From Candidatus Gottesmanbacteria bacterium UBA6580 (GTDB lineage Bacteria > Patescibacteriota > Microgenomatia > UBA10105 > UBA927): a DNA stretch of 64,000 bases. Positions 3,673 through 62,626 of this stretch are shown piece after piece. The stretch's first letter is position 1. The number at the start of each line of letters is the position of its first letter. The stretch is from the NCBI GenBank assembly GCA_002433895.1, contig DJJA01000005.1, forward strand, positions 3,883 through 67,882. Direction: 5' to 3'. Below the pieces are notes generated by a model. That model made no database searches and was not told the origin of the DNA. It saw nothing but the letters and a program-made list of their open reading frames with translations. The position numbers and the translations under genes were made by a program.

Positions 3673-4275
3673 ATGAAAAAACCCGTACGGTTTATTTACT
3701 TTGATGTTGGTGGTGTATTCCTGGATTGGAAGGAGGGCCACCGGAGAGCCGCGAAAAAATACAACGTGACCGCCGAAGAAATCGGAAAAATAACGCAGGC
3801 AAACATGCAGGCGGCGTTTGTCGGTTCACTCAGCGGCACTGACTACATGGCGAGATTTGCACAACTCCTGAAACTTACGGAACCATACCCGGATTTCGCG
3901 GAATTCTGGACGGATTTTCATGTCCCGATACCGGAAATGCACGCGTTTGCGCGATCGCTGCATCCGACGCATAAGCTGGGACTGTTGACGAACGCCGAAA
4001 CGGGTTCGATGCGCCAGGCGGTCAAAAAAGGGTTAGTGCCGGATGTCGCGTGGAAAGCCGTCGTTGATTCCTCGGTTTTTAAGGCTAAAAAACCCGATCC
4101 CGGGATTTTTGAAATTGCAGAAAAAGAAGCAGGGGTGGCACCACACGAAATCCTTTTCGTGGATGATCAGCCAGAAAATATCGAAGCAGTACATGCCCGC
4201 GGATGGCAAGGTATTGTGTTTGATACGGGAAACGTCACCGTTTCCATCGAAGCGATCAAAGTCGCGTTGAAATAA
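3673..4275 (+). CDS. HAD-superfamily hydrolase
   Basis: N-terminal DxG nucleophile motif (FDVGGV) and a C-terminal DD motif (ILFVDDQPEN). The length of 200 aa fits. Confidence 0.55.
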   Translation: MKKPVRFIYFDVGGVFLDWKEGHRRAAKKYNVTAEEIGKITQANMQAAFVGSLSGTDYMARFAQLLKLTEPYPDFAEFWTDFHVPIPEMHAFARSLHPTHKLGLLTNAETGSMRQAVKKGLVPDVAWKAVVDSSVFKAKKPDPGIFEIAEKEAGVAPHEILFVDDQPENIEAVHARGWQGIVFDTGNVTVSIEAIKVALK

Positions 4276-5172: not shown

Positions 5173-6591
5173 ATGTTAGCCGATCTTCCTATCAGTGTGT
5201 TGGCACAAAAACTGAAGCGCTCGGAAATAACGAGTGAACAGTTGGTGGCGGAATGTTACGACCGGATTGAAGCATATGACGGAACCATCAATTCCTTTAT
5301 TACGGTTGTCGATCGAAAAAAAGCAATTGAACGCGCTAAGTTTATAGACGCGCACCGTGAGACATTTCCGTCTCCGCTTGCGGGTATTCCCTACGTCATG
5401 AAAGATGCGTATCTTACCAAAGGGGTGCGCACGACCGCCGCCTCCAAAATTTTGGATGCGTTTATTGCTCCGTACAGCTCGACCGTTCATCAAAAACTAG
5501 AAAATGTGGGAGCGATCCTTATCGGTAAAATGAACATGGACGCATGGGGGCACGGCGCGAGTACTGAAAACACCGATTACGGCGTCACAAAAAACCCCTG
5601 GGGTAGCGACCGTTCAGCAGGCGGCAGCGGTGGCGGGCCGGCAGCAGCAATAGCAAGTAGATTTTGTGTATTTGGTATCGGTGAAGATACGGGTGGATCC
5701 ATCCGCAATCCCGCCGCATGGAACAACATCACCGCGATGAAGGTGACATACGGTCGTGTTTCCCGATACGGCGCGATTGCCTATGCATCAAGCCTGGACA
5801 CCATGGGGCCTACCGCGAAAACAGCCGAGGATTGCGCATTTGTTTTGGAAGCTATTGCAGGGTATGACGCGTACGATGCCACGAGTTCCCAAAAACCTGT
5901 TCCTTCCTATACAAAAGCATTGGACAAAAGCATCAAAGGAAAGAAAATCGCGTTTCCTACGGAATTTTATGGGGATGCACTTGATCCGAATATTAAAGAA
6001 GCTATTCTGGTTGCCCGTGATATTTTTGTGAAAGAAGGTGCTGAGGTGACTGATGTATCGCTGCCACTTCTGGAATACGGCGTTCCGGTCTACTATATTC
6101 TCGCGCCGAGCGAGACCAGTTCTAATTTGGGCCGATACGATGGGGTACGGTATGGCAACGGTAGGGATTTATTCACCAAAGAAAACATGCGCCGTATTAT
6201 GACCGGCACCTATGCATTATCAAGTGGATACTACGATGCGTATTACAAAAAAGCACAGAAAGTGCGGTCGTTATTTATCAAAGAATACGAAAAATTACTC
6301 TCCGAATATGACGCCATCCTTTCTCCTGTCACCCCGATTATGCCATCGAAGTTTGGCGAGCTGCTCGATGATCCGATTAAAAACATGATGGCGGATTTAT
6401 ACACGGTCATCGTAAACATTGTGGGGTTGCCCTCACTTGCTATCCCGTGCGGGTTTACGAAGGACAATCTTCCCATGGGGATGCAGCTCGTTGGCGCGAT
6501 GTTTGATGAAAGCACATTGTTTGCATTGGGGAATGCGTATCAAAAAGTGACCGACTGGCACACGCGCTCGCCAAATTTAGTAAATAGTTAA
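5173..6591 (+). CDS. gatA: Glu-tRNA(Gln) amidotransferase subunit A (amidase)
   Basis: Amidase signature GGSSGGPAAAIA, Ser-cisSer-Lys family, 472 aa, in gatCAB order. Confidence 0.9.
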   Translation: MLADLPISVLAQKLKRSEITSEQLVAECYDRIEAYDGTINSFITVVDRKKAIERAKFIDAHRETFPSPLAGIPYVMKDAYLTKGVRTTAASKILDAFIAPYSSTVHQKLENVGAILIGKMNMDAWGHGASTENTDYGVTKNPWGSDRSAGGSGGGPAAAIASRFCVFGIGEDTGGSIRNPAAWNNITAMKVTYGRVSRYGAIAYASSLDTMGPTAKTAEDCAFVLEAIAGYDAYDATSSQKPVPSYTKALDKSIKGKKIAFPTEFYGDALDPNIKEAILVARDIFVKEGAEVTDVSLPLLEYGVPVYYILAPSETSSNLGRYDGVRYGNGRDLFTKENMRRIMTGTYALSSGYYDAYYKKAQKVRSLFIKEYEKLLSEYDAILSPVTPIMPSKFGELLDDPIKNMMADLYTVIVNIVGLPSLAIPCGFTKDNLPMGMQLVGAMFDESTLFALGNAYQKVTDWHTRSPNLVNS

Positions 6592-42975: not shown

Positions 42976-43029
42976 CGATTTCTTCATACCTTTTGATCTA
43001 CTGTAGAAGTACCTTGAAAAGGAGGTATA

Positions 43030-43241
43030 TGAAAAATTATCATAGACAAAATATTCCTGCTGCAACTGGGCCAAGTCAGACCATGAAATGGGTAGGAATC
43101 TTTATTATCGTGGGAGCGATTCTCCTCATTGCCATATCCGTATTCAACATTCCGGTATATACCGTTGTTACTGGCGCATTATTACTAGCGTGCCCATTGA
43201 TCCACATGGCTATGATGCGGAATGGAGGGCATAAACATTAA
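43030..43241 (+). CDS. DUF2933 family small membrane protein (paralogue 1)
   Basis: Start at MKNYHRQ…; one TM helix then the motif …LLLACPLIHMAMMRNGGHKH. It is a paralogue of the ORF at 49893..50105. Confidence 0.5.
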
Positions 43242-43446
43242 GAATTAGTTCATCTTAATTTCACGATATCTTAATGACAGAAGGATTACTATAAAAGAGT
43301 TAACAGGAACATAGAAAGGAGGCGAAAAAACATGATGGGATGCTGTCACTATCCGATACGCAGTCCTACAATAACAAAGCGTAAACATTAAAATAAACCA
43401 CAGAAATCACCCTTTACCCCTATAAGGGTGATTTCTATTTTATAAC

Positions 43447-43566
43447 TTACTTAGCCTCTTCGTTTTTCAAAACCAAGTCCATTCCGCATTTGGGGCATTT
43501 CCCTGGTTTATCAGAAGTCACCTCAGGATGCATTGAACATGTATAAGTCTCTGTTGTTTCTGCCAT
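43447..43566 (-). CDS. 39-aa stand-alone zinc-ribbon heavy-metal-binding mini-protein (not in the ORF track)
   Basis: Minus-strand ORF MAETTETYTCSMHPEVTSDKPGKCPKCGMDLVLKNEEAK. Its C-x-M-H-P-E-V…C-P-K-C-G-M motif is the same one found at the N-terminus of the P1B ATPase at 51434. Confidence 0.5.
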   Translation of the reverse strand: MAETTETYTCSMHPEVTSDKPGKCPKCGMDLVLKNEEAK

Positions 43567-43605
43567 TAATTATCACCTCGCTTTCTTTTATCAAACACTA
43601 ATCAG

Positions 43606-44010
43606 CTAAGGAACATTTACAGTGAAATCCTTATTTTCCGTGCTTCCATCAGGCATTTTAACAGTGGTTCTAACTCTCCATGGCCCTCGCATAGACATAT
43701 TTCCAATCGCTGAATATCTTCCATTACCCTGCGATGTTGCATTACCTTGCTGCGTTCCCATATTCATTGCAGTCATATTCAGATCAAAGGAAACAGTTGC
43801 ATTATCAACTGGTTTACCGCTTTTATCCTTTACATCGATCATGAATGTGGCTTGACCAAGTCGAAGCGGATTAGGACTAGTAGACAGTGTAATGCCACCG
43901 TTTGAGTCAGCAGAAGTACCTGGAGTAGGAATTGACATTGATTTCCAACCGAGGTAAGCCACGGCGACAACTAAAACTGCGAGTAGTGCTAATAGTGTCT
44001 TATTATTCAT
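43606..44010 (-). CDS. periplasmic Met-rich YtkA/FixH-like protein
   Basis: Signal-anchor, then a beta-rich domain with Met clusters (…LNMTAMNMGTQQGN…IGNMSMRGPW…). Confidence 0.35.
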   Translation of the reverse strand: MNNKTLLALLAVLVVAVAYLGWKSMSIPTPGTSADSNGGITLSTSPNPLRLGQATFMIDVKDKSGKPVDNATVSFDLNMTAMNMGTQQGNATSQGNGRYSAIGNMSMRGPWRVRTTVKMPDGSTENKDFTVNVP

Positions 44011-44037
44011 ATTTTACCTCCATTCGATTTTTATACA

Positions 44038-45087
44038 TTAAATAACATTGATCATCATCATTAGTCCACCCGGTTCTTCATGGTCATTGGTTGTGTGGTG
44101 CGGAATATGGCAATGTAACATCCATTTACCAGGTCTGTCCGGTGTAAATTCGATATCATAACGTTCTCCCGGGGCTACTGAGACAACATCTTTTGTCCAC
44201 TGGGCACTTTCCGGGACGTCATTACCGTCCGTGGCCACGATCTTAAACGGAAATCCATGTAGGTGCATCGGATGGATCATTTGCCCGGACCCGATAAATC
44301 GTAGGCGAATTTTTTGACCTACTTTAGCCATAACATTTTCGGTATTGGGGAAAGCTTTCCCATTAATGGTAAAAAAGTTGCCGTCCATACCTGTTGCCGG
44401 CATGGCAGCATAGGTCTGGCCGTCAATGACTCTCCACTCATTTAACATAAATACTTTATCTACATCAGGCTTTGAAGCCAGTCCGCCGACCGGATCGATG
44501 ATAAACGCCCCAGATAGTCCCACTGAAATTTGTTTATCTGAATCAAAATGAGAGTGATACCAATATGTCCCGGCTGGTTTGGCAACAAACTCATAGGTAA
44601 ATGTTTCTCCTGGTTGAATAGGATCTTGTGTTTCGTCTGGAATACCATCCATATTATTGGGAACCTGGATACCATGCCAGTGGATGGTTGTCGGCTCCAT
44701 AAGATTGTTTTTGATGAGAATTTTAACTTTATCCCCATTGGTTGCACGAATAAGGGGACCCGGAACCATACCGTTATATGCCCAGGCCGTGACAACAGTA
44801 TCTTTTAGGATTGACCATCTCACTGGAGCCGCAGTCAAATTGAAAACTTTAGTGCCATTCTCCATTTTGAATGGAAGTTCCTGCAATCCAGAATCTTCGG
44901 TAGCCATGGGTACTCCCGTATCAGAAATTGCTTCCATTGCTTTTTCTCCAGCTAGATTAGCGCCAGTTGTCGTGAGCAGAGCGGGAGCGTTATTCGATTT
45001 TTTAACGATTTTCGGCACCATGAATGTGAGAATGATACCGAACAACACGATAAATCCTATGATGATTTTTTTGTTTGTATTTTCCAT
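44038..45087 (-). CDS. multicopper oxidase
   Basis: Copper-ligand motifs HWHG…, HSHF…, HPMHLHG… and HCHIPHHTTNDH, with a signal peptide from the ATG at 45087. Confidence 0.8.
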   Translation of the reverse strand: MENTNKKIIIGFIVLFGIILTFMVPKIVKKSNNAPALLTTTGANLAGEKAMEAISDTGVPMATEDSGLQELPFKMENGTKVFNLTAAPVRWSILKDTVVTAWAYNGMVPGPLIRATNGDKVKILIKNNLMEPTTIHWHGIQVPNNMDGIPDETQDPIQPGETFTYEFVAKPAGTYWYHSHFDSDKQISVGLSGAFIIDPVGGLASKPDVDKVFMLNEWRVIDGQTYAAMPATGMDGNFFTINGKAFPNTENVMAKVGQKIRLRFIGSGQMIHPMHLHGFPFKIVATDGNDVPESAQWTKDVVSVAPGERYDIEFTPDRPGKWMLHCHIPHHTTNDHEEPGGLMMMINVI

Positions 45088-45137
45088 ATTATTGCCTACT
45101 ACATAGTGTAGAACATCACACAATCATTTTCAATGAA

Positions 45138-45779
45138 CTAGTGATGATCGATGCCTTTAAATGCCTTAATAAATGTATGCATCCGATCAGCGTCAAAATC
45201 GTTGAATTTATCGATTCGCGCCCAAGCTGTCATTGCAATTTTAGCGTCCAATTTAGGGTATGGTGCCATAAAAACTTTGTCAGGGTATTTTTTGGCTACT
45301 TCTGTTAATCTCTCTACCAGTTGCCTACACTCGCCTTCAACTTCAGCACTCGGTGAGGCAGTGTCCGTCGCATTTCCCTCAGGGGAACAGTTGTATTGAA
45401 TTCCCACTCCACCATCTTCAAGGTTATGAAGCTGCAATTCATCGGGAATGGGAGAATCACTTTTGCCCCATTTCGCTTTCCCACCAACATGAGTTCCAGA
45501 GGTAGGTGGAATGGAATTATAAGGGTCATGCGCGTCCGTTATATTTTCGATGTGTTTGTTCCCGAGAGACGCCACAAATTCTCCAGGCTGAGGTTTTGAA
45601 AGCTCTTTAATGAGCAGATATCCGCCTCCGATCACAACAAGACCAATGAAAGCATAAAGGCCATATTTCTTATAATTCGATGTTGTATATTGTTTTTGCT
45701 GTTGCACACGATAATAATTCCTCTTGTACTCTTTGCGTTCATGCTTTGATAGCTGATTCCAATTATCCGGAAGTTCCAT
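45138..45779 (-). CDS. DUF3105 domain protein
   Basis: N-terminal TM helix plus the conserved …YNSIPPTSGTHVGG…GGVGIQYN… region. Confidence 0.5.
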   Translation of the reverse strand: MELPDNWNQLSKHERKEYKRNYYRVQQQKQYTTSNYKKYGLYAFIGLVVIGGGYLLIKELSKPQPGEFVASLGNKHIENITDAHDPYNSIPPTSGTHVGGKAKWGKSDSPIPDELQLHNLEDGGVGIQYNCSPEGNATDTASPSAEVEGECRQLVERLTEVAKKYPDKVFMAPYPKLDAKIAMTAWARIDKFNDFDADRMHTFIKAFKGIDHH

Positions 45780-45781
45780 AG

Positions 45782-46321
45782 TTATTTTTGATCTTTAACC
45801 ACACAAGTATATGGCTGGTTAATTTTTTTGATCGTAAAACTAATCGCAACCAAAAGGATAGATATCCCAGCAAAACCAAACTCTTGCCCGCGAAATGGTA
45901 ATATCCCCAACACGGTCGTTGCAGAACTAAACCCTATTAGGGAGGTCAGGACCACAGAACCACATGATGCACACCCTACACCAAATAAACTTGTGGCTAC
46001 TCCTGCAAAAGAAACACCCAATTCTGTCTGAATTCTTACTGATTGACGGAGATAGTAAATTAATAAACTCATCTGAATACCAGTAAGAGTCGCGCTAATT
46101 ACCGTTAGTGTCCGCGAAAGAGGGGTAAAGTTAGTTTCGAGCGAACCGAGTAAAGCCGTGAGCAAATTCGTCTTTTCCCAAATACTCATAGAGGAGGAGG
46201 TCATGGTTTTGGTTACAAGATGTAAATTTGGTAACCAGGCTGCAAAAGCAATCATTGTGACAGTTATAAATAAGGTTGCGGCTAAATATTTGGGGTGCCA
46301 AATTATTTTCGCTATGGTGGT
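45782..46321 (-). CDS. polytopic membrane protein with a TM-embedded CxxC (possible thiol-oxidoreductase partner of the adjacent DsbA)
   Basis: Several TM helices and a …GVGCASCGSV… motif. The start is placed at the internal ATG at 46321, just downstream of the dsbA stop. Confidence 0.3.
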   Translation of the reverse strand, partial: TTIAKIIWHPKYLAATLFITVTMIAFAAWLPNLHLVTKTMTSSSMSIWEKTNLLTALLGSLETNFTPLSRTLTVISATLTGIQMSLLIYYLRQSVRIQTELGVSFAGVATSLFGVGCASCGSVVLTSLIGFSSATTVLGILPFRGQEFGFAGISILLVAISFTIKKINQPYTCVVKDQK

Positions 46322-46328
46322 CATATCG

Positions 46329-47090
46329 TTATTTAAGCAGTGGATCAATAACTGCCTGGAAAGCAGCAAATGGTTGTGCTCCAACCAATAGATCACCATC
46401 AATATTCCCGTCACTGGTTGATTTTCCAATTAAGAATGTAGGGGTACCAGATGCACCGGCGGCTGAGCCGTCAGCGATGTCTTTCTTTACCTCATCTGCT
46501 TTAGCTGTGTTGGATAGACAAGTTGTAAAGGTGCTGATGTTCATTTTTAAATCTCTGGCGATTGTTTGTATTTTTGCATCATCCAGGCCATTCCCGTTAG
46601 ACGTCGTGCGCTTGAATATTTCATCGTGAAATTCATAATATTTTTTATCTCCACCCTGGTCTCGGGCACAAGTGGCAGCAATTGCCTCCTTACTGGCCAT
46701 TGGATCGTGGAATGAGAGCGGAAAATCTCTAAATACCAGCTTTGCCTTACCCGTATCAATATATTTTTTAACAAGTTCTTGATGTGTAGAATCAAAGTGA
46801 CGTTTACAAAATGGACACTCATAATCAGAAAACTCAATAATAGTTACAGGTGCGTTTTTATCACCCAAGATAGGATCGTCATCGATAGAAGCGACACCTT
46901 TGGTTACCTGAGGCGCTTGTGCAGCCGGTGCCGCTGGTTGATTATCGTTGGTTCCCTGAGCAACACCAGCAACGACTCCTTTTTCTAACATTTTGACTTT
47001 TGTGGTGAGTGATCCGAGGAAAAACGAACCAATTATTAGAAGTACTACTAATACGGGTGTGAGTTTGGAACTGGTTATTTGATCTGTCAT
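46329..47090 (-). CDS. DsbA-family thioredoxin-fold protein
   Basis: TM anchor and a CPFC active site (…FSDYECPFCKRH…), 253 aa. Confidence 0.7.
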   Translation of the reverse strand: MTDQITSSKLTPVLVVLLIIGSFFLGSLTTKVKMLEKGVVAGVAQGTNDNQPAAPAAQAPQVTKGVASIDDDPILGDKNAPVTIIEFSDYECPFCKRHFDSTHQELVKKYIDTGKAKLVFRDFPLSFHDPMASKEAIAATCARDQGGDKKYYEFHDEIFKRTTSNGNGLDDAKIQTIARDLKMNISTFTTCLSNTAKADEVKKDIADGSAAGASGTPTFLIGKSTSDGNIDGDLLVGAQPFAAFQAVIDPLLK

Positions 47091-47145
47091 ATTACTACAC
47101 AGTGTAGTAGGTAAACAGATTATCTGTCAACTATGTCTAACCACA

Positions 47146-48144
47146 TCACTTAACAGAACTGAAGTTTACAGTGGTTGCTGGTGTGTATCGAGGTTGGATG
47201 CTCTGAAGCTCCTGGAGTGTTTCTTTACGGCAGACTGATTCACAATTTGCAGAATTATTACAAAGCATAACAACGTCTTGACCGTCTTCGTGAAGTTCGA
47301 TGGTATTTACCGGAGTTACCATGAGTCCTAGTAAGGCGGTGAGAGATAAAATACTTAACCCTATGTTTCGTAAGCCGATCTTTTTGTAAGTATTGTCGAT
47401 TACGTTCATCGAACGAATGCGGGCTTCAAGTGTATCGACACTCATCATCGCTGGTAGAAAAATGGGGTTGATATCTGGTTCGTATTGGATTAGCTTTCGT
47501 AGTACATCTTTCAGTGATTGTTTATCTTTGGCGTTTGTTATCGCGGCATTGTCTGCGGTCACCTCCCTATCTGTTCGATAGACTCTTATAAAATCGGACA
47601 CCACCGGAAAAAAAGGAAAAAGTGATTCAATCGTTGAAGCCAGAAGTAAAGTAAGTGTATCTTTGTGCTCCAGGTGGTATTTTTCATGCCTTAGTATTAC
47701 CTCTAGCTCATTCTGGCTCATAAGTTGAATCAACCCAGTCGAAATATAGATTTTGGGATTACGGATACCAAAACAGAATGCTTGGGGTTTAGCTTGTGTA
47801 AAAACTAATATTTTCTCTTGTAATCCTAAAGATTTAAAAAGGTTTGTGAGATCTACAGGATGTTCAAGGTTCTTTTTTAAAAGTTTATTTCGAAAAATAA
47901 CTACATTAAATATCGATCCGAACAATTTGAAAAGGGTAAACACGACAGCAAGTATGAATATTCCGGCCAGAATCCTTCCATACTCACCGGGTATCTGAAA
48001 ATTTAATGATTTTGCCATTTCCTGACAATAATACAGACCATGATGAATAAGAATCAGAAAGTATTTGTAGATAACGAATATGTGGCCAAACGTAAGAAAT
48101 ACGAGCATTCCGGCAAATACCAATAAATAATTATGTATTTTCAT
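47146..48144 (-). CDS. BlaR1/MecR1-type M56 signal-transducing metalloprotease lacking the PBP sensor domain, with a Cys-rich C-terminal tail
   Basis: TM helices and an HEKYHLEHKD zinc motif. After the last TM there is only a tail of about 60 aa, with C-x5-C-x3-C (…MLCNNSANCESVCRKE…) in place of a beta-lactam sensor domain. Its start overlaps the stop of the blaI/copY-like gene. Confidence 0.6.
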   Translation of the reverse strand: MKIHNYLLVFAGMLVFLTFGHIFVIYKYFLILIHHGLYYCQEMAKSLNFQIPGEYGRILAGIFILAVVFTLFKLFGSIFNVVIFRNKLLKKNLEHPVDLTNLFKSLGLQEKILVFTQAKPQAFCFGIRNPKIYISTGLIQLMSQNELEVILRHEKYHLEHKDTLTLLLASTIESLFPFFPVVSDFIRVYRTDREVTADNAAITNAKDKQSLKDVLRKLIQYEPDINPIFLPAMMSVDTLEARIRSMNVIDNTYKKIGLRNIGLSILSLTALLGLMVTPVNTIELHEDGQDVVMLCNNSANCESVCRKETLQELQSIQPRYTPATTVNFSSVK

Positions 48145-48517
48145 TCTGTTTTTCTATGAGTTTTATAAAATAATCTTTCTTTTCTTTTGGCAGCTCATCT
48201 ATGGACTCTGCGAAAGAGGCTATGGCGGTGTCGCCGAAAGATTGAAAAAAATTGGTGAAAAAAGAACCAGCTACTTTCTTACTAAATTCCTTCCGGGAAA
48301 TTCTCGGAGAGTAATACACAACAGAATTTTTCTCGGATCGTTTTAACAAGCCCTTTTCATAAAGTCGCGTAAGAATAGTCGCCACGGTTGTATAAGCCAG
48401 CTCTTTCTCTTTTCTCATTTCTTCCAGGACTTCCCGCACGGAACAAGTCTCAGAGTTCCATACGATATTCATGATTTCCTGATCGAGTGGACTTAAACTC
48501 TTTTGTGTAATCTGCAT
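48131..48517 (-). CDS. BlaI/MecI/CopY-family transcriptional repressor
   Basis: 128 aa with a winged helix (…LDQEIMNIVWNSETCSVREVLEEM…YTTVATILTRLYEKGLL…). Confidence 0.75.
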   Translation of the reverse strand: MQITQKSLSPLDQEIMNIVWNSETCSVREVLEEMRKEKELAYTTVATILTRLYEKGLLKRSEKNSVVYYSPRISRKEFSKKVAGSFFTNFFQSFGDTAIASFAESIDELPKEKKDYFIKLIEKQNENT

Positions 48518-48534
48518 ACTACTGATTGTAGTAT
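48516..48534. promoter_or_regulatory. palindromic operator ATACTAC-N5-GTAGTAT overlapping the start codon of the blaI/copY-like gene
   Basis: Perfect 7-bp inverted repeat containing the TAC…TGTA cores typical of BlaI/CopY boxes. Confidence 0.45.
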
Positions 48535-48615
48535 CTCACTGACAGACATTCAATATGTGAGACTTTAAGAAATCTTCATGCTTTCTTAATCATTCAAAGT
48601 TTAGACTATGCATAT

Positions 48616-49296
48616 ATGTACGACTATGGTAACTGGTTTCTTGTTTTATTGAACATCGTTCTATTTGGTTACTTTCTGAGAAGTTCGTTTAAACCCCGAA
48701 CCAAAACAGACTGGGAGACATTTAATTCATTCGGCGCTTTTATCGTAGCTCTATTTGCAGAAATGTACGGTTTCCCGCTAACAATTTATTTACTAACGTC
48801 ACTTTTTGGTACCCGCCTTGGTATTGACTTTACCCATGATAACGGACATTTACTCAATACTTTACTTGGAATTAAAGGAGATCCGCATTTCAGTTTTCTT
48901 CATGTAGTAAGTTATGCACTCATTATCGGAGGTTTTACCCTTCTGAGTAATGCTTGGGAAGTCCTGTATAAAGCGCAAAAACGGCGCAGACTCGCACGAA
49001 CCGGAATATATACATATATCCGCCATCCACAGTACCTTGCCTTTATCATGATCATTTTCGGCTTTTTAGTACAGTGGCCAACTATAATTACGCTCATTAT
49101 GGCGCCAATTCTCATCTGGCGGTATCTACATCTTGCCAAGCTTGAAGAGAGCGAGATACACAAACAATTCGGGTCATCCTACGCCTCATATCTTAAAAAT
49201 ACTCCTGCATTTTTACCATCTTTTACCACTGTACTAGAAAAATTAAAGTCTCGTAGCGTCAAGCTTGAGATTACGAAAGGGAATACCCATGAATAA
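48616..49296 (+). CDS. isoprenylcysteine carboxyl methyltransferase (ICMT/PEMT) family membrane protein
   Basis: …RLARTGIYTYIRHPQYLAFIMIIFGFL…E… motif of the ICMT family, with multiple TM helices. Confidence 0.55.
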   Translation: MYDYGNWFLVLLNIVLFGYFLRSSFKPRTKTDWETFNSFGAFIVALFAEMYGFPLTIYLLTSLFGTRLGIDFTHDNGHLLNTLLGIKGDPHFSFLHVVSYALIIGGFTLLSNAWEVLYKAQKRRRLARTGIYTYIRHPQYLAFIMIIFGFLVQWPTIITLIMAPILIWRYLHLAKLEESEIHKQFGSSYASYLKNTPAFLPSFTTVLEKLKSRSVKLEITKGNTHE

Positions 49297-49813
49297 TCAA
49301 GTTTCTTCATCTGACCAAGCAGTCAAACTTAGAGAGCCTATACGCGAAAGTTTGATATTATTTATTATTAAAATTACATCATTACTGATCGTAACAGACA
49401 CAATATATGCGGTGCTAAATTTTGTTCTATTACAAGCTTTCTTTCTAAATCATGAATTGCCGCTCAACCTGCATGCATATGCCCCATATATTCTTACAAT
49501 ACTTCACTTGGTAAAAACGATTTTACAAGTATGGGGAATTTCTTCAATCGTATTCCAATGGGTCGGGAATTCGTATCAAATAACTAATCGGCACTTAATT
49601 CACAGTATGGGCATAATGAATTGTACTGAGAAAATATATGATTTGAATATCATCCGTTCTATTTCCATAGAGCAGTCTTGGATCGGTAAGATATTCAAAT
49701 ACGGTACGGTAAACATCGAAATTAGCGCCTCGGGTGGTTATACGGACCAAGTAACTCTTTTTGGTGTACCAAATCCTCAGCAGTATGAAAATATGCTACG
49801 AAAGCATTTTTAA
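49289..49813 (+). CDS. membrane-anchored bacterial PH domain protein (YdbT/DUF304-like)
   Basis: Start at MNNQVSS…; TM helices then …ITNRHLIHSMGIMNCTEKIYDLNIIRSISIEQSWIGKIFKYGTVNIE…. Confidence 0.45.
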   Translation: MNNQVSSSDQAVKLREPIRESLILFIIKITSLLIVTDTIYAVLNFVLLQAFFLNHELPLNLHAYAPYILTILHLVKTILQVWGISSIVFQWVGNSYQITNRHLIHSMGIMNCTEKIYDLNIIRSISIEQSWIGKIFKYGTVNIEISASGGYTDQVTLFGVPNPQQYENMLRKHF

Positions 49814-49892
49814 TGTAAAGATATGAATCTTAACGATTTCTTCATACTTCGCTTTCTATACTGAGATATTGGTATTAAAAGGAGGTATCGGT

Positions 49893-50105
49893 ATGGAAGA
49901 TCATCACAATCACAGTGTTACAAAAGCAGAGCCGGTAAGCAGTCCCCTAAAATGGGTAGGTGTTTGCTTAGCTATCGGGGCGGTGCTCCTAATAGCTATA
50001 ACCGTGTTTAAAGTCCCGGTTAATACTGTTGCTACAACTGCTATTTTTCTCGCATGTCCGTTGTTACACATCTTTATGATGAAAAACGGCAATCATAAAC
50101 ATTAA
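49893..50105 (+). CDS. DUF2933 family small membrane protein (paralogue 2)
   Basis: MEDHHNHS…; one TM helix, then …IFLACPLLHIFMMKNGNHKH. RBS AAAGGAGGT upstream. Confidence 0.5.
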   Translation: MEDHHNHSVTKAEPVSSPLKWVGVCLAIGAVLLIAITVFKVPVNTVATTAIFLACPLLHIFMMKNGNHKH

Positions 50106-50504: not shown

Positions 50505-50540
50505 TTCTCGCCAAGATGTTGTACTATTAAAGGTAGAACC

Positions 50541-51200: not shown

Positions 51201-51437
51201 ATGATGCACTCAATCACTACACAAACAATAAAAACTACAGCAACTTTAACATGTCCTCTTTGTCACAAAGACCATGTAGAAGAAATGCCTATAGATGCGT
51301 GCCAACATTTTTATAAATGTGAGTCATGTAAATCGATAATTAAGCCAAAAGAAGGAGATTGCTGTGTTTTTTGTTCATATTCAGATAGTTTATGTCCACC
51401 GAAGCAAGCTGAGTATCTTGCAGCTAACAACTTATGA
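51201..51437 (+). CDS. small Cys-rich putative metal-binding protein
   Basis: 78 aa with 10 Cys (CPLC…CQHFYKCESC…GDCCVFCSY…C). Its stop overlaps the ATPase start by ATGA. Confidence 0.35.
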   Translation: MMHSITTQTIKTTATLTCPLCHKDHVEEMPIDACQHFYKCESCKSIIKPKEGDCCVFCSYSDSLCPPKQAEYLAANNL

Positions 51438-53668
51438 CTACATATACCTGCTCAATGCATCCGGAAGTTATTAAAGATGCTCCTGGTACCTGTCCAAAAT
51501 GCGGAATGACATTAGTTCCCGTAGAAAAAACTCCAGACCACTCCGGGATGGATCACTCATCCCACACTGAGAGTGCTCATGATCATCATTCCATGAAGAC
51601 GGTAACAGGCATGACCTTTTGGGAAAAACTCAAAATGAGTATGACTATGTCGATGGGAATGGATCATACGGGATTGACAGGTCGCGAGATGGCTAAACTC
51701 ATGGAAGAAGATATCCGGAACAAATTTTTTGTCTCACTCCTTCTGACTCTACCCATTATTGCGTATTCCCCGATGGGTACAAATATGCTCGGCCTTTCTT
51801 TGCCGACACCTATTCCCGCTTCGTGGATTATGTTTCTTTTAACGACACCAGTGTACTTTTACTCTGGGTGGATCTTTCTGTATTCAACCTATAAAGCACT
51901 GCAAGCAAAAACTCTCAATATGGCTGTGCTTATCGCCGTCGGCATTACCGCCGCATACGCTTTTAGCATTGTTCTAACGCTTCTTGGGAGCGAAGAGTCA
52001 TTTTATGAAGCGGCAGCCATGCTTACCACATTCGTCTTGTTTGGACACTGGATGGAAATGAAGTCACGCCGGGGAACGACCGATGCCCTGCAGGCCTTAT
52101 TTAATTTGGTGCCCCCACAAGCACGGGTATTACGGGATGGCAAAGAAATGATGATCCCTACCTCTGAAGTAAAGCTCGGCGATATTCTCATACTCAAGCC
52201 AGGTGACAAGGTGCCGGTCGATGGCGAGATTATTGAAGGTGAAACCGCAATCGATGAGTCTTTAGTGACCGGCGAGTCCTTGCCTGTTGCAAAATCTATC
52301 GGTGATAGTGTCATCGGAGGATCAATCAATACATCAGGTTCAGTTCAGTTTAAGGCAACCAAAATAGGATCTGATACCGCACTTGCGCAAATCGTTAAGA
52401 TGGTTGAGACTGCACAAAACTCCAAAGCCCCTGGGCAAAAAATTGCCGATCGGTTCGCTAAATACCTTGTCATAGTGGCCGTCGGTGGTGGGCTTCTTAC
52501 GTTTCTTGTTTGGTATTTTGCCTTAGGCGCAACATTTATGGTTGCACTCACGTTTGCAATTTCTACGGTTGTTATTGCGTGTCCGGATGCGTTAGGACTT
52601 GCGACCCCTACCGCTGTTGCGGTCGGTACCGGATTGGGTGCCAAGCACAATATTCTTATCAAGGACGCCCCCACGCTTGAGCAGGTATCGAAGATCCAAG
52701 CTGTGGTACTCGATAAAACGGGAACACTTACAGAGGGGAAACCTATTATTACGGATGTTATAGCAGCAACAGGATTTACTGAGGACGAGATCATCGCACT
52801 CGACGCAGCAGCAGAGGCCAAGTCATCACATCCGTTAAGTTTGGCGGTCTTGGAAGAAGCCAAAAAACGAAAAGTAGAGATACCGACGACTGTTGAAAAA
52901 TTCCAAAACTTAGCGGGTCACGGAGTGGAAGCAGTTGTTGATGGCAAAAAAGTGTTAGTCGGCACCAACAAGCTCATGCAGGACAGAAATATATCTATTG
53001 ATCCCATCAAAGCGGATATAGATCGACTGCTGTCTGAAGGTAAAACGATAATGGTGCTGGCTGTTGACGGCAAAGTTGCCGGCGTTGCTGCAGCCTCTGA
53101 TCCTGTGAAAGCCAACGCAAAATCGGCGATTGCCCGTATGAAAGACATGGGTCTGACGGTCGCTATGATAACTGGTGACAATCAAAAAACTGCGGAAACA
53201 ATCGGCAAGCAACTCGGCATAGACCGGGTATTTGCAGAAGTACTGCCGGAGGATAAATCGTCATACGTCAAAAAACTACAGGCAGAAGGTAAATTTACAG
53301 CTATGGTCGGTGACGGTGTCAATGATGCGCCTGCCCTTGCCCAAGCTGACATCGGGATCGCTATCGGGGCAGGAACGGATGTGGCGATAGAAACAGCCAA
53401 GGTGGTGCTTATGAAATCGGATCCGGCAGATGTCCTGCGGGCAATTAAACTCTCCAAAGCGACAGTCCGGAAGATGAAGGAAAATCTCGTCTGGGCGAGT
53501 ATTTATAACCTACTAGCAATTCCGGTTGCTGCAGGCGTTTTATACCCTAGCTATGGCATTACGCTTCGCCCTGAGTTCTCTGCTCTTCTTATGTCAATTT
53601 CTTCGATAATCGTGGCCACCAATGCCGTACTCCTCAAGCGGGCAGAGAAAAGTCTAGTACAAATGTAG
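51434..53668 (+). CDS. P1B-type heavy-metal-translocating ATPase with an N-terminal zinc-ribbon metal-binding domain, a His/Met-rich linker and an atypical CPD transmembrane motif
   Basis: N-terminus YTCSMHPEV…CPKCGM, then …HSGMDHSSHTESAHDHH…MSMTMSMGMDH…. It has a TGES actuator motif, an [13 protein letters not shown]6 motif (Cys-Pro-Asp), DKTGTLT, and GDGVNDAPAL. Length 744 aa. Confidence 0.85.
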   Translation: MTTYTCSMHPEVIKDAPGTCPKCGMTLVPVEKTPDHSGMDHSSHTESAHDHHSMKTVTGMTFWEKLKMSMTMSMGMDHTGLTGREMAKLMEEDIRNKFFVSLLLTLPIIAYSPMGTNMLGLSLPTPIPASWIMFLLTTPVYFYSGWIFLYSTYKALQAKTLNMAVLIAVGITAAYAFSIVLTLLGSEESFYEAAAMLTTFVLFGHWMEMKSRRGTTDALQALFNLVPPQARVLRDGKEMMIPTSEVKLGDILILKPGDKVPVDGEIIEGETAIDESLVTGESLPVAKSIGDSVIGGSINTSGSVQFKATKIGSDTALAQIVKMVETAQNSKAPGQKIADRFAKYLVIVAVGGGLLTFLVWYFALGATFMVALTFAISTVVIACPDALGLATPTAVAVGTGLGAKHNILIKDAPTLEQVSKIQAVVLDKTGTLTEGKPIITDVIAATGFTEDEIIALDAAAEAKSSHPLSLAVLEEAKKRKVEIPTTVEKFQNLAGHGVEAVVDGKKVLVGTNKLMQDRNISIDPIKADIDRLLSEGKTIMVLAVDGKVAGVAAASDPVKANAKSAIARMKDMGLTVAMITGDNQKTAETIGKQLGIDRVFAEVLPEDKSSYVKKLQAEGKFTAMVGDGVNDAPALAQADIGIAIGAGTDVAIETAKVVLMKSDPADVLRAIKLSKATVRKMKENLVWASIYNLLAIPVAAGVLYPSYGITLRPEFSALLMSISSIIVATNAVLLKRAEKSLVQM

Positions 53669-58026: not shown

Positions 58027-61000
58027 ATGAACAGAACAATAAATCTAGAAGTCAAAGGAATGCACTGTCAATCATGCGAGATGCTCATTAAGGATGAGTT
58101 GTCAGAGATTTCCGGTATTAAGGATATATCTATTGATGCCAAAACGGGTAAAGGATCGCTCGTCGCAACCAGTAGTAAGGTAACCGATGCTGCTATTATT
58201 GCAGCCATCAAAAACGCAGGTTACACTGGTGTCGTTTTCCCTACCACGAACGGCAATGGCCATTCATTATTGAGCCGTGAGGAATTTGACCAACACTCTG
58301 CCCCTGTATCGTTCACAATGCCACAAGAAGTTGAGATAGATGGCAAGATTGGCAAAAGTGACGACGGATTCTGGACAATTAAGGGAATCCTTCGCTTTGG
58401 AACACGAAATACTATTGTTGAAACGGTGGCGAATGCCATAGCTCCAGTAACAGTCGAAGCTGCAGGAAAATCTGGAGAGCGCACAAACTTGGTTATCCAG
58501 GGCATGCATTGCTCTTCCTGCGCAGCCATTATTGAACGACAATTGAAAAAAGTTCCGGGTGTTACGGATGCAAAAGTAAACTTTGCAGCTGAGAAAGCGT
58601 CAATTGTTCACGACTCGTCCATTGCAAAGATTACTGATCTAATCGCCGGAGTTGAGAAAGCCGGATACAGAGCAATTTCTGCTGATCAAGAAGATTCTAA
58701 AGCTCAGGCAGAACGCCAGCAAGGCGAGATTAAAGGTATGTGGCGGAAGTTTTTGGTCAGCTTAGTGCTGTCTTCCCCCATGATCTATTTCATGTTCATG
58801 GACTTTTTCGCGATGCCGTTTAAGGCGGTACTTTTACCATACATTGGAATCGTCTCACTTGTCTTATCAACTCCTGTCCAATTCTTTATTGGATCGAGTT
58901 TTTATAAAGGAATGATTTCTGCGCTGCGCATGAAGACGTTTAATATGGATAGTCTGATTGCCATCGGCACGTCGGTTGCGTATTTCTATAGTTTGGTCAA
59001 TTTCCTGACCTACAACGCACAAACCGGTTCTATCCTCGGATTGAACGGTGCCAAAATTCCTGAGCTCTACTTTGAGACTGCAGCGTTTCTTATTACCTTT
59101 GTTATTTTAGGTAAATTCCTGGAAGCAAAAGCAAAAGGAAGAACCAGCGAAGCGATCAAAAAACTGATGGGTTTGCAGGCAAAAACCGCGCGTGTCATAA
59201 GAAATGGTGAAACACTTGATATTCCGGTTGAGCAAGTCGTCAAAGATGACATTATCGTTGTCCGACCGGGTGAAAAAGTTCCTGTCGATGGCGTGATCGT
59301 CAAAGGTTCGTCCTCTGTTGATGAATCCATGATTACCGGAGAAAGTCTGCCAGTGGAGAAGCATGTTGATGACATGGTCATCGGTGGCACGATTAATAAA
59401 GTTGGTAGCTTTGAATTCATGGCTACCCGTATCGGTGGCGAGACAACCTTGGCACAGATCATCCGATTGGTTGAGGATGCCCAGGGTTCAAAAGCCCCGA
59501 TTCAGGCTGTTGCTGACCGAATCTCTGCTTATTTTGTGCCCGCAGTTATTATCGTTGCTTTACTCACCTTTGTAGTGTGGTATTTCCTTTTGGGAGCAAC
59601 GCTATCATTTGCACTCATGGCATTTACAGCCGTGATCGTTATTGCGTGTCCATGTGCCCTTGGCTTAGCCACTCCGACGGCCATTATGGTTGGTACGGGA
59701 GTTGGTGCCGAGCACGGTATTTTGGTCAAAGGCGGCGAGCCACTTGAGGCTGCCAGCAAGATTAATGCCATCGTATTTGATAAGACCGGCACGATTACCA
59801 AAGGGAAACCCGAGGTGACAGATGTAGAAGACTATGGCACGCTTGACGAAGACGACGTTCTTATGATCGCAGCCAGTCTTGAAAAACAGTCTGAGCACCC
59901 GCTTGCAGAAGCTATCTACTCCTATGCACAGGAGGAAGGTATCAAACTTGCCGAAGTCGATGGATTCTCCGCAATCCCCGGACACGGAGTCAAGGGAAAA
60001 GTCGGGAAAACCGAATATTATCTCGGGAACCGCAGACTTATAGCCGACAAACTTGGCCTTGATATTGGCCGGATTGAGCGAAAGCTTGCCAGACTTGAAG
60101 AACAAGGCAAAACCGCTATGATTCTCGCTTCCAAGAAGCAAGTGGAAGGTGTGGTCGCTGTTGCCGATACAGTCAAAGACACCTCGCGTGAAGCCGTAGA
60201 ACGCCTTAAGAAGATGGGTATCGAAGTCTGGATGATTACGGGTGACAATACCCGTACAGCCAAGGCTATTGCCGCCCAAGTCGGTATTGATAATGTCCTG
60301 GCAGAAGTCTTGCCTCAGGACAAAGCGAATGAAGTCAAGAAACTCCAGGATGCTGGCAAAAAGGTCGCCATGGTTGGCGATGGTATCAATGACGCACCAG
60401 CGCTTGCTCAGGCAGATTTAGGTATCGCCATGGGATCAGGCACTGATGTCGCTATGGAAACTGGTGGCATTGTCATTATCAAAAATGACCTTCGGGACGT
60501 TGTGCATGCACTGGAACTATCCAAGAGCACTGTGTCAAAGATCCAGCAGAATATGTTCTTTGCGCTCTTTTATAACGTCATCGGTATTCCGATTGCCGCA
60601 CGCATATTCAGCTTCATCGGCTTGGTCTTAAAGCCTGAGCTCGCTGGCCTTGCCATGGCCTTAAGTTCCGTCTCAGTTGTCGGCAACTCCCTCTTACTGA
60701 GGCAGTACAAACCCGGTAAGCGCAACTATGTGTCGCAGTTTGCCCCAGCCATAATGATGGTGGCGTTTACATTCCTATTCATAGAGTTTGCCCGGTTCAG
60801 TTCAACCATGGCAGCCAGTGAGAAGATGGATACAAAAGCGGCTGATGCAAACATTATGGTGGCAAAAACACCCGACGGCACTGAGAAGAAGTTCTTTGCC
60901 ATGGATAGAGAGCTACCGAAAGAACTTGCAGGTAAAATCCCTGCAGACGGCTTTGCCCCGGTCTATATTGGTGGAAAAAAATACTTGCCAGTCTATATTG

Positions 61001-61176
61001 GCTACGATGAAGCCAAGATCATGACCGATGAGAAACTCTTTACCAAAGAGGGTGATACCATTAAAGGCTTCTTTGGAAATGATGTGATCGTGTCCGGTAT
61101 CCTCCCCGATACCAATACGGCCTACGACACCTATCACTTCGTCAAACCTGGATTTGAAATCAAAAAGATGGACTGA
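58027..61176 (+). CDS. copA: copper-translocating P1B-1 ATPase with two N-terminal HMA domains and an extended C-terminus
   Basis: GMHCQSCE and [11 protein letters not shown] motifs, [31 protein letters not shown]. There is an extra hydrophobic segment plus a tail of about 130 aa after the last canonical TM helix. Length 1,049 aa. Confidence 0.9.
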
Positions 61177-61270: not shown

Positions 61271-62626
61271 TTGTACCCTGAAATGAGTACAAAGTACAAC
61301 CAGAATTCAACGATAGAACCACCAAAAATAGAATACTGTCTCTATGCTCGCAAGTCGTCAGAGTCGGATGAACGACAGGCAATGTCCATCGATTCTCAGA
61401 TTGACGAGATGCTTACATTAGCGAAGCGAGATAATCTCAAAATTAAGGAGGTTAAAAAAGAAAGCCACTCGGCAAAGATGTCAGGTTCTCGGCCAGTATT
61501 TACTCAACTCCTCCAAGAAATACGCCAAAAGAAGTTCAATGGAATCTTGACTTGGGCACCAGATCGATTGAGCCGTAATGCTGGCGACTTGGGATCAGTA
61601 GTCGATCTCATGGATCAGGGGAAGTTGGTAAAGATACAAACTTACTCTCAGAGTTTTACAAACAGTCCAAACGAAAAATTCCTCTTAATGATTCTATGTT
61701 CACAGGCAAAGTTAGAAAATGACAACAAAGGATTAAATGTTCAGCGAGGTTTGCGAACGAAGTGTTCAATGGGATGGAGACCAAGCATTGCTCCCGTAGG
61801 ATATCTAAATCAAGCTGGTGATGGTCACAAGGACGAACTAATCATTCTCGACCCCGACAGAGCTTCATTTGTCACTCAAATGTTTGAAAGGGTGGCAAAT
61901 CAAGGTCATAGCGGTAGGGCGATTAAACATTGGCTAGACAGAATAGGATTTAAAACTAGGAATGACAAACCAATACCTTTGAGTAAGGTTTATTCAACAC
62001 TTAATAACCCATTCTATTATGGTGAATTTGAATTCCCTGTAGGCAGTGGAACTTGGTACCAAGGTAAACATACGCCACTCGTGACAAAAGAACTTTTCGA
62101 TAAAGTCCAAGCTGTTTTACAAACAGTCCCGAAAGGCTACAAGAACAAGATTTTTCCTTTCAAAAGTATTTTTAGATGTGGTGGGTGTGGAGGTGGAGTA
62201 ACCGCCGAAGAAAAGATCAGGAAACTAAAACATGGTGGATACACCAAACACACTTATTACCATTGTGGCAGATCATTAAATTATGAATGTGATGAGCCAT
62301 ACATTACCGAAAGCGATCTCATAAAACAATTAATCGTCAATATCGACAAAATCAAATTTAATAACGCTGGAGTGTCACGAAAAATCCAGGAAGATATCGA
62401 GAGATATCACCGTCTCAAGTCCCAAGTCCTACATCAGGAATTTTTAGATGGTCACTTGGGAGAATATGAAAGAATTCCTAAAAGCACAGCCGACAAAAAC
62501 GATATGACAAAAAACTATCTCCTCCATATCCTCCAAGTGGGGACGGCTGAGGAGCGACAAGAGGCACTCACTTTCATCAAAACGAAGTTTATTCTGACAA
62601 ATAAAACGATAGTTATCCAGAAATAA
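61271..62626 (+). CDS. large serine recombinase (integrase)
   Basis: N-terminal resolvase catalytic domain (…CLYARKSSESDERQAMSIDSQ…), a recombinase domain, and a zinc-ribbon (…CGGCGGGV…YYHCGRS…). Length 451 aa. It sits next to a tRNA. Confidence 0.8.
   Translation: MYPEMSTKYNQNSTIEPPKIEYCLYARKSSESDERQAMSIDSQIDEMLTLAKRDNLKIKEVKKESHSAKMSGSRPVFTQLLQEIRQKKFNGILTWAPDRLSRNAGDLGSVVDLMDQGKLVKIQTYSQSFTNSPNEKFLLMILCSQAKLENDNKGLNVQRGLRTKCSMGWRPSIAPVGYLNQAGDGHKDELIILDPDRASFVTQMFERVANQGHSGRAIKHWLDRIGFKTRNDKPIPLSKVYSTLNNPFYYGEFEFPVGSGTWYQGKHTPLVTKELFDKVQAVLQTVPKGYKNKIFPFKSIFRCGGCGGGVTAEEKIRKLKHGGYTKHTYYHCGRSLNYECDEPYITESDLIKQLIVNIDKIKFNNAGVSRKIQEDIERYHRLKSQVLHQEFLDGHLGEYERIPKSTADKNDMTKNYLLHILQVGTAEERQEALTFIKTKFILTNKTIVIQK

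Follow-up and report, generated by a model that had tools for sequence, protein, structure and literature searches.

We found, in a 64,000-nucleotide stretch of contig DJJA01000005.1 from Candidatus Gottesmanbacteria bacterium UBA6580 (positions 3,883 to 67,882 of the contig; hereafter the window), a blaI-like repressor gene overlapping a gene for a BlaR1-family membrane zinc protease (peptidase family M56) that ends in a short, Cys-bearing tail. We propose that this gene pair from the candidate phyla radiation (CPR) forms an autoregulated proteolytic derepression switch of the BlaI/BlaR type, in which a cluster of cysteines on the outer face of the protease senses copper or copper-altered thiols. 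Taken whole, we rate this proposal an even call. The regulatory circuit itself, comprising repressor, protease, operators and regulon, is highly likely on comparative grounds; copper stress is somewhat favoured as the physiological input, and a sensing role for the tail cysteines together with C40 is somewhat less likely than not.

A BlaI-like repressor gene overlaps a gene for a short M56 protease

The repressor gene (48131-48517, minus strand) encodes a 128-amino-acid winged-helix protein (Pfam Penicillinase_R, 3e-26, 92.6 bits) with a predicted leaderless start, and the M56 gene (47146-48144, minus strand), assigned from its open reading frame (ORF) and Pfam match, encodes 332 amino acids. 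As a preliminary description of this DNA had noted, the M56 start overlaps the repressor stop: the two ORFs share 14 nt, the M56 ATG lying 11 nt upstream of the blaI stop codon, and the pairing is kept across related genome loci. The public gene call of the repressor (898-1239 in locus L081) is 113 amino acids long and starts at an internal Met, omitting 48473-48517 (minus strand). Because the first 15 residues are conserved, we take the upstream ATG as the real start. The lack of a leader, and with it of a ribosome-binding site, at the true start presumably led to the short call, and other leaderless genes in CPR annotations may be similarly mis-started.

Over its full length the repressor aligns with Staphylococcus aureus BlaI (1sd4, E 3e-15; residues 5-109 covered) and with MecI, and its predicted layout is of their type, a Penicillinase_R winged helix followed by C-terminal dimerisation helices, with a putative cleavable site before a Phe. 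That site, S101-F102, aligns with the S. aureus BlaI cleavage site N101-F102. F102 is invariant in 79 of 79 repressor homologues, inside a conserved AIASFAESI segment, and BlaR1 cleaves itself at a Ser-Phe bond (PMC9834060).

The protease matches Pfam Peptidase_M56 (PF05569, 2e-16) over residues 57-206 at 60.4 bits against a gathering cut-off of 31, and also matches Pfam M48. The HEKYHLEHKD zinc site that had been read from the sequence is at residues 153-162; its zinc-binding and catalytic residues H153-E-K-Y-H157 are encoded at 47674-47688 (minus strand), with D162 following. The third zinc ligand motif of gluzincins, ExxxD, is E194-V-T-A-D198 (47551-47565, minus strand) and is invariant in 78 of 78 sequences. 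In this alignment of 78 family sequences, to which all M56 conservation counts refer unless another denominator is given, H153, E154, H157, E194, D198 and R242 are invariant and D162 is Asp in 73. Each catalytic residue has a counterpart in the active site of BlaR1 seen by cryo-electron microscopy, namely H201ExxH, D210, E242xxxD and R294 (PMC9834060). The earlier assignment as a BlaR1-type protease thus stands with its active-site residues intact, and from this conservation the enzyme is very probably active.

Sequence searches of solved structures with the M56 protein returned weak matches (HtpX, 8e-4; BlaR1, 0.03), and it took a fold search to confirm the link with BlaR1. An AlphaFold2 (AF2) model has a confident core, with a predicted local distance difference test (pLDDT) of 75 overall, and its top Foldseek match in the PDB was S. 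aureus BlaR1 (8exq/8exp, E 1e-6). Homologues of about 330 amino acids occur throughout Microgenomates, and the closest relatives of the window are Microgenomates/CPR bacteria (Gottesman-, Woese-, Roizman-, Levy- and Collierbacteria and WWE3). Among 1.84 billion cluster representatives, a profile search recovered 208 clusters at E<=1e-30 and 28,837 at E<=1e-3, the latter representing the wider M56/M48 superfamily. The short length of the protein is ancestral to the family and not a truncation.

Operators lie over the promoters of blaI, dsbA and a multicopper oxidase gene

Three copies of a candidate operator with the consensus TACTACA-N3-TGTAGTA are present in the gene cluster, each over a promoter -10 box. 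The boxes come from an independent promoter scan with a sigma-70-like model. Operator 1 (48516-48534, ATACTACAATCAGTAGTAT) is the perfect palindrome ATACTAC-N5-GTAGTAT that the preliminary description had placed over the blaI start, where it covers the first two bases of the ATG. It contains the -10 box TACAAT (48525-48530), with a -35 box TTGAAT at 48548-48553 and a spacer of 17. The blaI ATG begins 8 nt past the -10 box, consistent with a leaderless mRNA. Operator 2 (47093-47109, TACTACACTGTGTAGTA) is a perfect copy whose -10 box TACACT (47101-47106) is separated by a spacer of 18 from TTGACA at 47125-47130; the dsbA ATG (47090) lies 2 nt past it. Operator 3 (45097-45113, TTCTACACTATGTAGTA) has 1 mismatch, is separated by 9 nt from the downstream ATG of the multicopper oxidase gene (45087) and contains the -10 box TACACT (45105-45110), with TTGAAA at 45128-45133 and a spacer of 17; this arrangement recurs in three related loci (L001, L002 and L007).

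Allowing up to 1 mismatch, TACTAC-N5-GTAGTA was found 4 times against 0.06 expected per window, and 3 of the 4 sites lie inside the gene cluster. The fourth (6229-6245, 1 mismatch) lies inside a long ORF and was taken as chance, as was a 10/12 match without the inner A/T upstream of CopM (50522-50538).

Across 80 related genome loci (1.04 Mb) we counted 104 perfect copies where 0.1 would be expected, and almost every one sits where blaI, dsbA or a copper gene begins. A site lies within 150 nt past the M56 stop in 69 of 78 loci, and one matching at least 11 of 12 positions precedes blaI in 47 of 76. Aligned promoters share a conserved TTGACA 15 nt upstream of the operator and a start codon mostly 1-3 nt downstream of it, so the mRNAs would be leaderless or nearly so. 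This conservation, together with the two cluster copies beyond the one first noted, supports the earlier suggestion that the palindrome acts as an operator.

The sequence of the half-sites is conserved and that of the three bases between them varies, which favours a protein-binding site over an RNA hairpin. The palindromes were accordingly rejected as RNA elements: there are no compensatory changes, and Rfam gave nothing relevant in 43000-50000.

Several genomes hold two paralogous BlaI-M56 pairs (L036 and L063 on the WWE3 RAAC2 chromosome, L038/L041, L055/L056, and two copies in L029). Their tails differ, with three or four Cys, as do their downstream genes, and the TACTACA-N3-TGTAGTA consensus is common to both pairs, which suggests cross-talk or a shared regulon.

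Conserved cysteines are predicted on the outer face of the protease

Family-averaged hydropathy gives helices at about residues 5-25, 28-45 (weaker), 57-83 and 258-279. The last of these (47308-47373, minus strand) is also indicated by the charge distribution and corresponds to an AF2 helix at 258-276. After it comes a 53-residue tail (residues 280-332; 47149-47307, minus strand) that contains H285 and the motif C295-x5-C301-x3-C305 (MLCNNSANCESVCRKE; Cys codons within 47230-47262) and in which a Pfam search found no domain. The motif is as first described; the tail is shorter than the roughly 60 residues then given. Segments rich in K+R flank the protease domain (mean 3.8 and 3.4), and the first 20 tail residues are acidic (mean 3.15 D+E versus 0.77 K+R). 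BlaR1 has been shown experimentally to have both termini outside (Nout-Cout) and a cytosolic active site (PMC9834060). For the four-helix Nout-Cout layout, hydropathy, the positive-inside pattern and the BlaR1 fold match agree, the second helix being weakly hydrophobic and of low AF2 confidence. Hydropathy, charge pattern and the BlaR1 layout together place the tail, as earlier proposed, outside the cell by prediction.

Two cysteines stand out for their constancy. C40 (codon 48025-48027, minus strand), part of an HHGLYYC motif where the second hydrophobic helix reaches the outer face, is Cys in 76 of 76 aligned sequences, and C295 is Cys in all 71 sequences aligned at that column. C301 is present in 60 of 78 and C305 in 63 of 78. 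Of 111 full-length cluster representatives, 84 carry C-x4-7-C-x3-C in the tail and all 111 have at least one tail Cys; in all, conservation of the tail cysteines extends over about 200 sequence clusters. Among the 57 nearest genome loci, which we term the closest loci, 47 have three tail Cys, 10 have one and none has two, so C301 and C305 are lost only jointly. The loop at residues 46-56 (SLNFQIPGEYG) holds a nearly invariant P52 and a conserved G56. The preliminary description had held that a cytoplasmic and unconserved tail would speak against its proposal; the tail is predicted to lie outside and its cysteines recur family-wide.

The predicted regulon joins thiol-oxidoreductase and copper genes

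The genes under the operators are thiol-oxidoreductase and copper genes. Operator 2 precedes a predicted target encoding a membrane-anchored, DsbA-like thioredoxin-fold protein with a CPFC active site (46329-47090, minus strand), and an operator precedes the orthologue in 54 related loci. The dsbA operon would continue with a conserved 180-amino-acid membrane protein that we call TM215 (45782-46324, minus strand) and, assigned by ORF and Pfam, a DUF3105 protein (45138-45779, minus strand). A two-domain multicopper oxidase of 349 amino acids (Pfam; 44038-45087, minus strand) is the predicted target of operator 3 and is probably co-transcribed with the downstream YtkA-like gene (Pfam; 43606-44010, minus strand). 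The order blaI-M56-dsbA-TM215(-DUF3105-MCO-YtkA), with MCO the multicopper oxidase, was seen in over 50 loci. In related loci, operators are linked, besides the genes for DsbA and the oxidase, to those for Cu P-type ATPases, cupredoxin, ICMT, ArsR, CsoR-family, HMA/CopZ-like, DsbD_2-cupredoxin, thioredoxin-like and Met-rich proteins.

TM215 almost always directly follows the operator-controlled dsbA in Microgenomates. Its invariant motifs are AAWLPN, GVGCASCGS, LPFRGQEFG and KKINQPxxC, and it has a C-terminal Cys. It matched no Pfam or NCBIfam family, and its AF2 model (pLDDT 58) was too low in confidence for a fold search. It may be an unrecognised redox partner of DsbA, similar to DsbB, VKOR or CcdA. 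In a distant clade, the TM215-homologous region forms part of proteins of 410-470 amino acids. The operator-controlled genes of that clade are different ones, among them those for two unannotated, Cys-bearing proteins, a 90-amino-acid single-helix protein ending in GGC and a 308-amino-acid membrane protein with CCAHH; they occur directly after the M56 gene (L058, L061, L063, L064, L066, L067, L069 and L072) or at a second site (L062-L077).

The module sits within a metal island of about 20 kb (40.9-61.2 kb). Pfam confirmed the DsbA, multicopper oxidase, ICMT and DUF2933 neighbours that had been named for the gene pair. The island further holds a two-component system, DUF2933 twice, a small heavy-metal-binding-domain (HMBD) protein, YtkA, the oxidase, CopM (above its NCBIfam cut-off), a GDCCVxC protein, HMA proteins, three P-type ATPases, an ArsR regulator and an HMA-DsbD_2-cupredoxin fusion. 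The ICMT/PEMT-family methyltransferase gene (48616-49296, plus strand) is divergent from blaI and starts 82 nt from the blaI operator, an arrangement also seen in L001, L009, L011 and L014-L016. A large serine recombinase gene (61271-62626) directly follows the last gene of the island, the whole region then spanning 40892-62626, and suggests mobility.

Further features of the island concern its ATPases and thiol proteins. A copper-type P1B ATPase (51434-53668, plus strand) has CPD in place of the usual CPC at about residue 383 (VVIACPDALGLATP), as do 16 of 16 close homologues (at least 70% identity) in related loci; the usual CPC is found in the 1049-amino-acid ATPase encoded at 58027-61176. 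Among NCBIfam models, the DsbA-like protein comes nearest to the Rcas_1661 thioredoxin-like (seleno)lipoprotein family (125 bits, under the cut-off of 190), and a member of the GDCCVxC (seleno)protein family (51201-51437, plus strand) adjoins the Cu-ATPase gene. Selenocysteine variants are known in both the Rcas_1661-type and GDCCVxC families.

A proposed copper-linked proteolytic switch and its alternatives

We propose that a dimer of the BlaI-like repressor would bind TACTACA-N3-TGTAGTA over the -10 box and transcription start of the three promoters and so silence blaI-M56, dsbA-TM215-DUF3105 and the oxidase-YtkA pair. Transcripts of blaI and dsbA would be leaderless or nearly so, with the oxidase start codon falling 9 nt past its operator. 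In the membrane, the M56 protein would adopt the BlaR1 arrangement: its proteolytic zinc site would face the cytoplasm, and an outer-face cluster would combine C40, where helix 2 ends, with the tail residues C295, C301 and C305 and, in most cases, H285. Perturbation of this cluster, most likely by copper binding or a copper-induced thiol change, would lead the protease to cut the repressor before the invariant F102. Cleavage would part the DNA-binding half from the dimerisation half, and the genes for thiol oxidoreductases and copper detoxification would be switched on. As the signal we favour copper, or the damage it does to exported thiols, because this fits the regulon, the island and the precedent of the PetR/PetP pair discussed below.

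Several observations weigh against this copper-sensing proposal. The island has its own two-component system and ArsR-family regulator, and related loci carry CsoR, any of which could sense copper, and the target found most constantly, dsbA-TM215, is not specific to copper. Outer cysteines beside DsbA may be oxidised to disulfides, and disulfides do not bind Cu(I). Tail conservation holds fully for C295 and not for C301 and C305: of the 57 closest loci, 10 lack these two and keep only C295 and C40, so the full C-x5-C-x3-C motif is not indispensable. H285 is kept in just 50 of 78 sequences. The AF2 pLDDT is low (30-54) for residues 31-55 and the tail, so no Cys geometry or metal site can be claimed. 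C40 also occurs in tail-less relatives from other phyla (L071, L078 and L080), and its role may therefore be unrelated to the tail.

The main rival is that the protease senses the disulfide state of the envelope, which we consider rather unlikely. The pairs C40-C295 and C301/C305 would be DsbA substrates that keep the protease off when oxidised; with too little disulfide-forming capacity, or in the presence of reductants, the reduced cysteines would turn it on and raise dsbA-TM215 in a homeostatic feedback, the copper genes being secondary passengers. It would explain why dsbA-TM215 is the near-universal operator-controlled target and why both common variants have an even number of outer Cys (4, or 2 after the joint loss of C301 and C305), an odd number being found in no close homologue. 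The invariance of the C40 and C295 pair and the Cys-bearing membrane or thioredoxin-like character of the distant-clade targets point the same way. Operators, however, also precede oxidase, Cu-ATPase, CopZ-like, CsoR and cupredoxin genes in several lineages, and the module is nearly always inside copper islands. The distant clade, with four tail Cys plus C40, has an odd number, and the proximity of C40 to C295 has no structural support.

In a related and unlikely version, M56 would be a protease-coupled reporter of envelope thiol status, with a C40-C295 link taking the place of the BlaR1 loop-sensor contact. DsbA, itself co-regulated, might form this link as a disulfide, or the two cysteines might share a Cu(I) site; breaking or metallating the link would turn the cytoplasmic protease on. 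If M56 does report thiol status in this way, the cell would gauge how well it can form disulfides, or how far copper attacks its exported thiols, and tune dsbA-TM215 to match, a previously undescribed sensing of oxidative-folding homeostasis conserved across Microgenomates.

Less probable still, the Cys tail could be a mere disulfide- or metal-stabilised structural cap and the input be sensed elsewhere, such as at the short loop between transmembrane helices 2 and 3 (TM2-TM3 loop), on the membrane or cytoplasmic side (for example C124), or by a partner (TM215, DsbA or small neighbouring proteins). The ten close loci without C301 and C305 keep synteny and operators, the tail is poorly conserved outside its cysteines, C40 and C124 are kept even in tail-less relatives, P52 of the TM2-TM3 loop hardly varies, and PetP senses copper without any tail. 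Against a mere cap, C295 is never lost and the Cys spacing is held down to about 25-30% overall identity, which indicates strong selection on the tail; in BlaR1, moreover, the segment past the last helix is the signal-input side (PMC9834060).

A CopY-like scheme, in which the repressor itself binds copper and leaves the DNA while M56 merely clears or recycles it, is very improbable. The copper-island setting would suit it, as would a moderately conserved C25 in the DNA-binding domain and a weak similarity to the CopY/TcrY model TIGR02698. That similarity, at 45.6 bits, is far under the cut-off of 121.95; neither the repressor nor its homologues have the C-terminal CxC...CxC motif of CopY, C25 is the sole Cys of the repressor and most homologues likewise have a single one. 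The operator spacing is unlike that of the cop box, translation of the repressor gene is tightly coupled to that of an intact protease, and the position of the cleavage site holds an invariant residue. Of the first label, BlaI/CopY-like, only the BlaI half is therefore kept: by these comparisons the repressor is BlaI-like and not CopY-like.

That the pair is a canonical BlaR1/MecR1 β-lactam sensor whose sensor domain was cut off by mutation or assembly error, as an M56 domain beside a blaI-like gene might suggest, is refuted by the family-wide length of about 330 amino acids (all of some 200 cluster representatives and 80 genome loci), the conserved promoter and operator after the stop codon, and the lack of a transpeptidase domain, β-lactamase or penicillin-binding protein (PBP) gene nearby.

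Relation to known BlaI/BlaR-type and copper systems

The concept of such a switch is not new. In a survey of BlaR-like proteins, about 6% carry a penicillin-binding domain, about 96% are near a blaI-like gene, and M56 with an unannotated C-terminal region is the commonest architecture (PMC13081940). The earlier description of a β-lactam-sensing logic that had been rewired is thus misleading, because M56 proteins without the penicillin-binding domain are the majority of the family.

A copper-triggered precedent is PetR/PetP of Synechocystis sp. PCC 6803, a BlaI/CopY-family factor with a sensor-less M48/M56 protease that degrades it only with copper (bioRxiv 10.1101/2020.07.31.226407). Compared by published architecture, not by sequence alignment, it appears to be the closest functional analogue. 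In both systems the repressor is without the CopY cysteines, its gene overlaps that of the protease, the protease has about 300 amino acids, a cytoplasmic HExxH domain and no penicillin-binding domain, and there is a link to copper. Helix layouts are near-identical (4-21, 28-50, 65-87 and 256-278 in PetP; about 5-25, 28-45, 57-83 and 258-279 here), and both inverted repeats have 3-nt cores spaced by 5 nt, GAC-N5-GTC for PetR and TAC-N5-GTA here. PetP, however, has no Cys-bearing tail, and its proposed copper ligands M53 and M58 are in the TM2-TM3 loop, whereas loop 46-56 here has no Met. PetR controls petE/petJ, a matter of cofactor economy, and also activates transcription; the targets here are dsbA-TM215 and copper-detoxification genes, with operators on the -10 box and start of mostly leaderless genes in a CPR host.

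With BlaR1/BlaI and MecR1/MecI of S. aureus and Bacillus licheniformis the pair shares the M56 gluzincin site (HExxH, D, ExxxD, R), the best fold match, a predicted Nout-Cout layout, full-length repressor alignment, Phe at P1' and an autoregulated operon. It differs in having a 53-amino-acid tail instead of a transpeptidase-like sensor and an extracellular loop 1 of about 11 rather than 41 amino acids, and the M56 protein scores 37.5 bits on NCBIfam blaR1_generic, whose cut-off is 400. The cluster contains no β-lactamase or PBP2a gene, its operator-linked genes being blaI, dsbA and the multicopper oxidase, and the operator cores are one base wider apart than TACA-N2-TGTA of the bla operator.

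CopY, CopR and TcrY of Firmicutes likewise combine a Penicillinase_R winged helix, a TAC/GTA-type inverted repeat and control of copper defence. The present repressor lacks their C-terminal CxC-x4-CxC metal site, scores under the family cut-off and has a protease partner. Cop boxes follow the consensus KACANNTGTA within RNYKACANNTGTMRNY (PMC7253601); the operator here has three, not two, central bases between the ACA and TGT cores.

CenIR of Clostridioides difficile, PvmSR of Pseudomonas aeruginosa and mycobacterial BlaIR also have a short unannotated C-terminus, a BlaI-like partner and non-β-lactam functions. Their regulons, in contrast, concern the cell wall, virulence or energy metabolism, and neither a conserved extracytoplasmic Cys cluster nor a dsbA/copper regulon is reported for any of them.

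The Scs (suppressor of copper sensitivity) systems are thiol-oxidoreductase systems, of which ScsC is reported to bind Cu(I) (PMC8900818). The analogy is one of output alone, a DsbA-like protein with a Cys-containing membrane partner against copper stress; regulation differs.

Implications for CPR bacteria and atypical BlaR proteins

Literature searches found no description of this CPR system. Its novel features are the Cys-bearing tail, the regulon of dsbA and copper genes, leaderless promoters and a host from the CPR. Very little is known of how CPR/Patescibacteria regulate transcription, and here repressor, operator, promoters and a multi-gene regulon can all be read from sequence, with a very strong comparative footprint over many lineages. 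The pair would be a second, independent case of copper-tied BlaI/BlaR-type proteolytic signalling after PetRP, with outer cysteines in place of loop methionines as the candidate sensor and, as output, disulfide-bond machinery and copper detoxification. It also points to TM215 as a candidate, unannotated membrane partner of DsbA in these bacteria, and would serve as a small model system, open to experiment, for signal sensing by the abundant atypical BlaR proteins.

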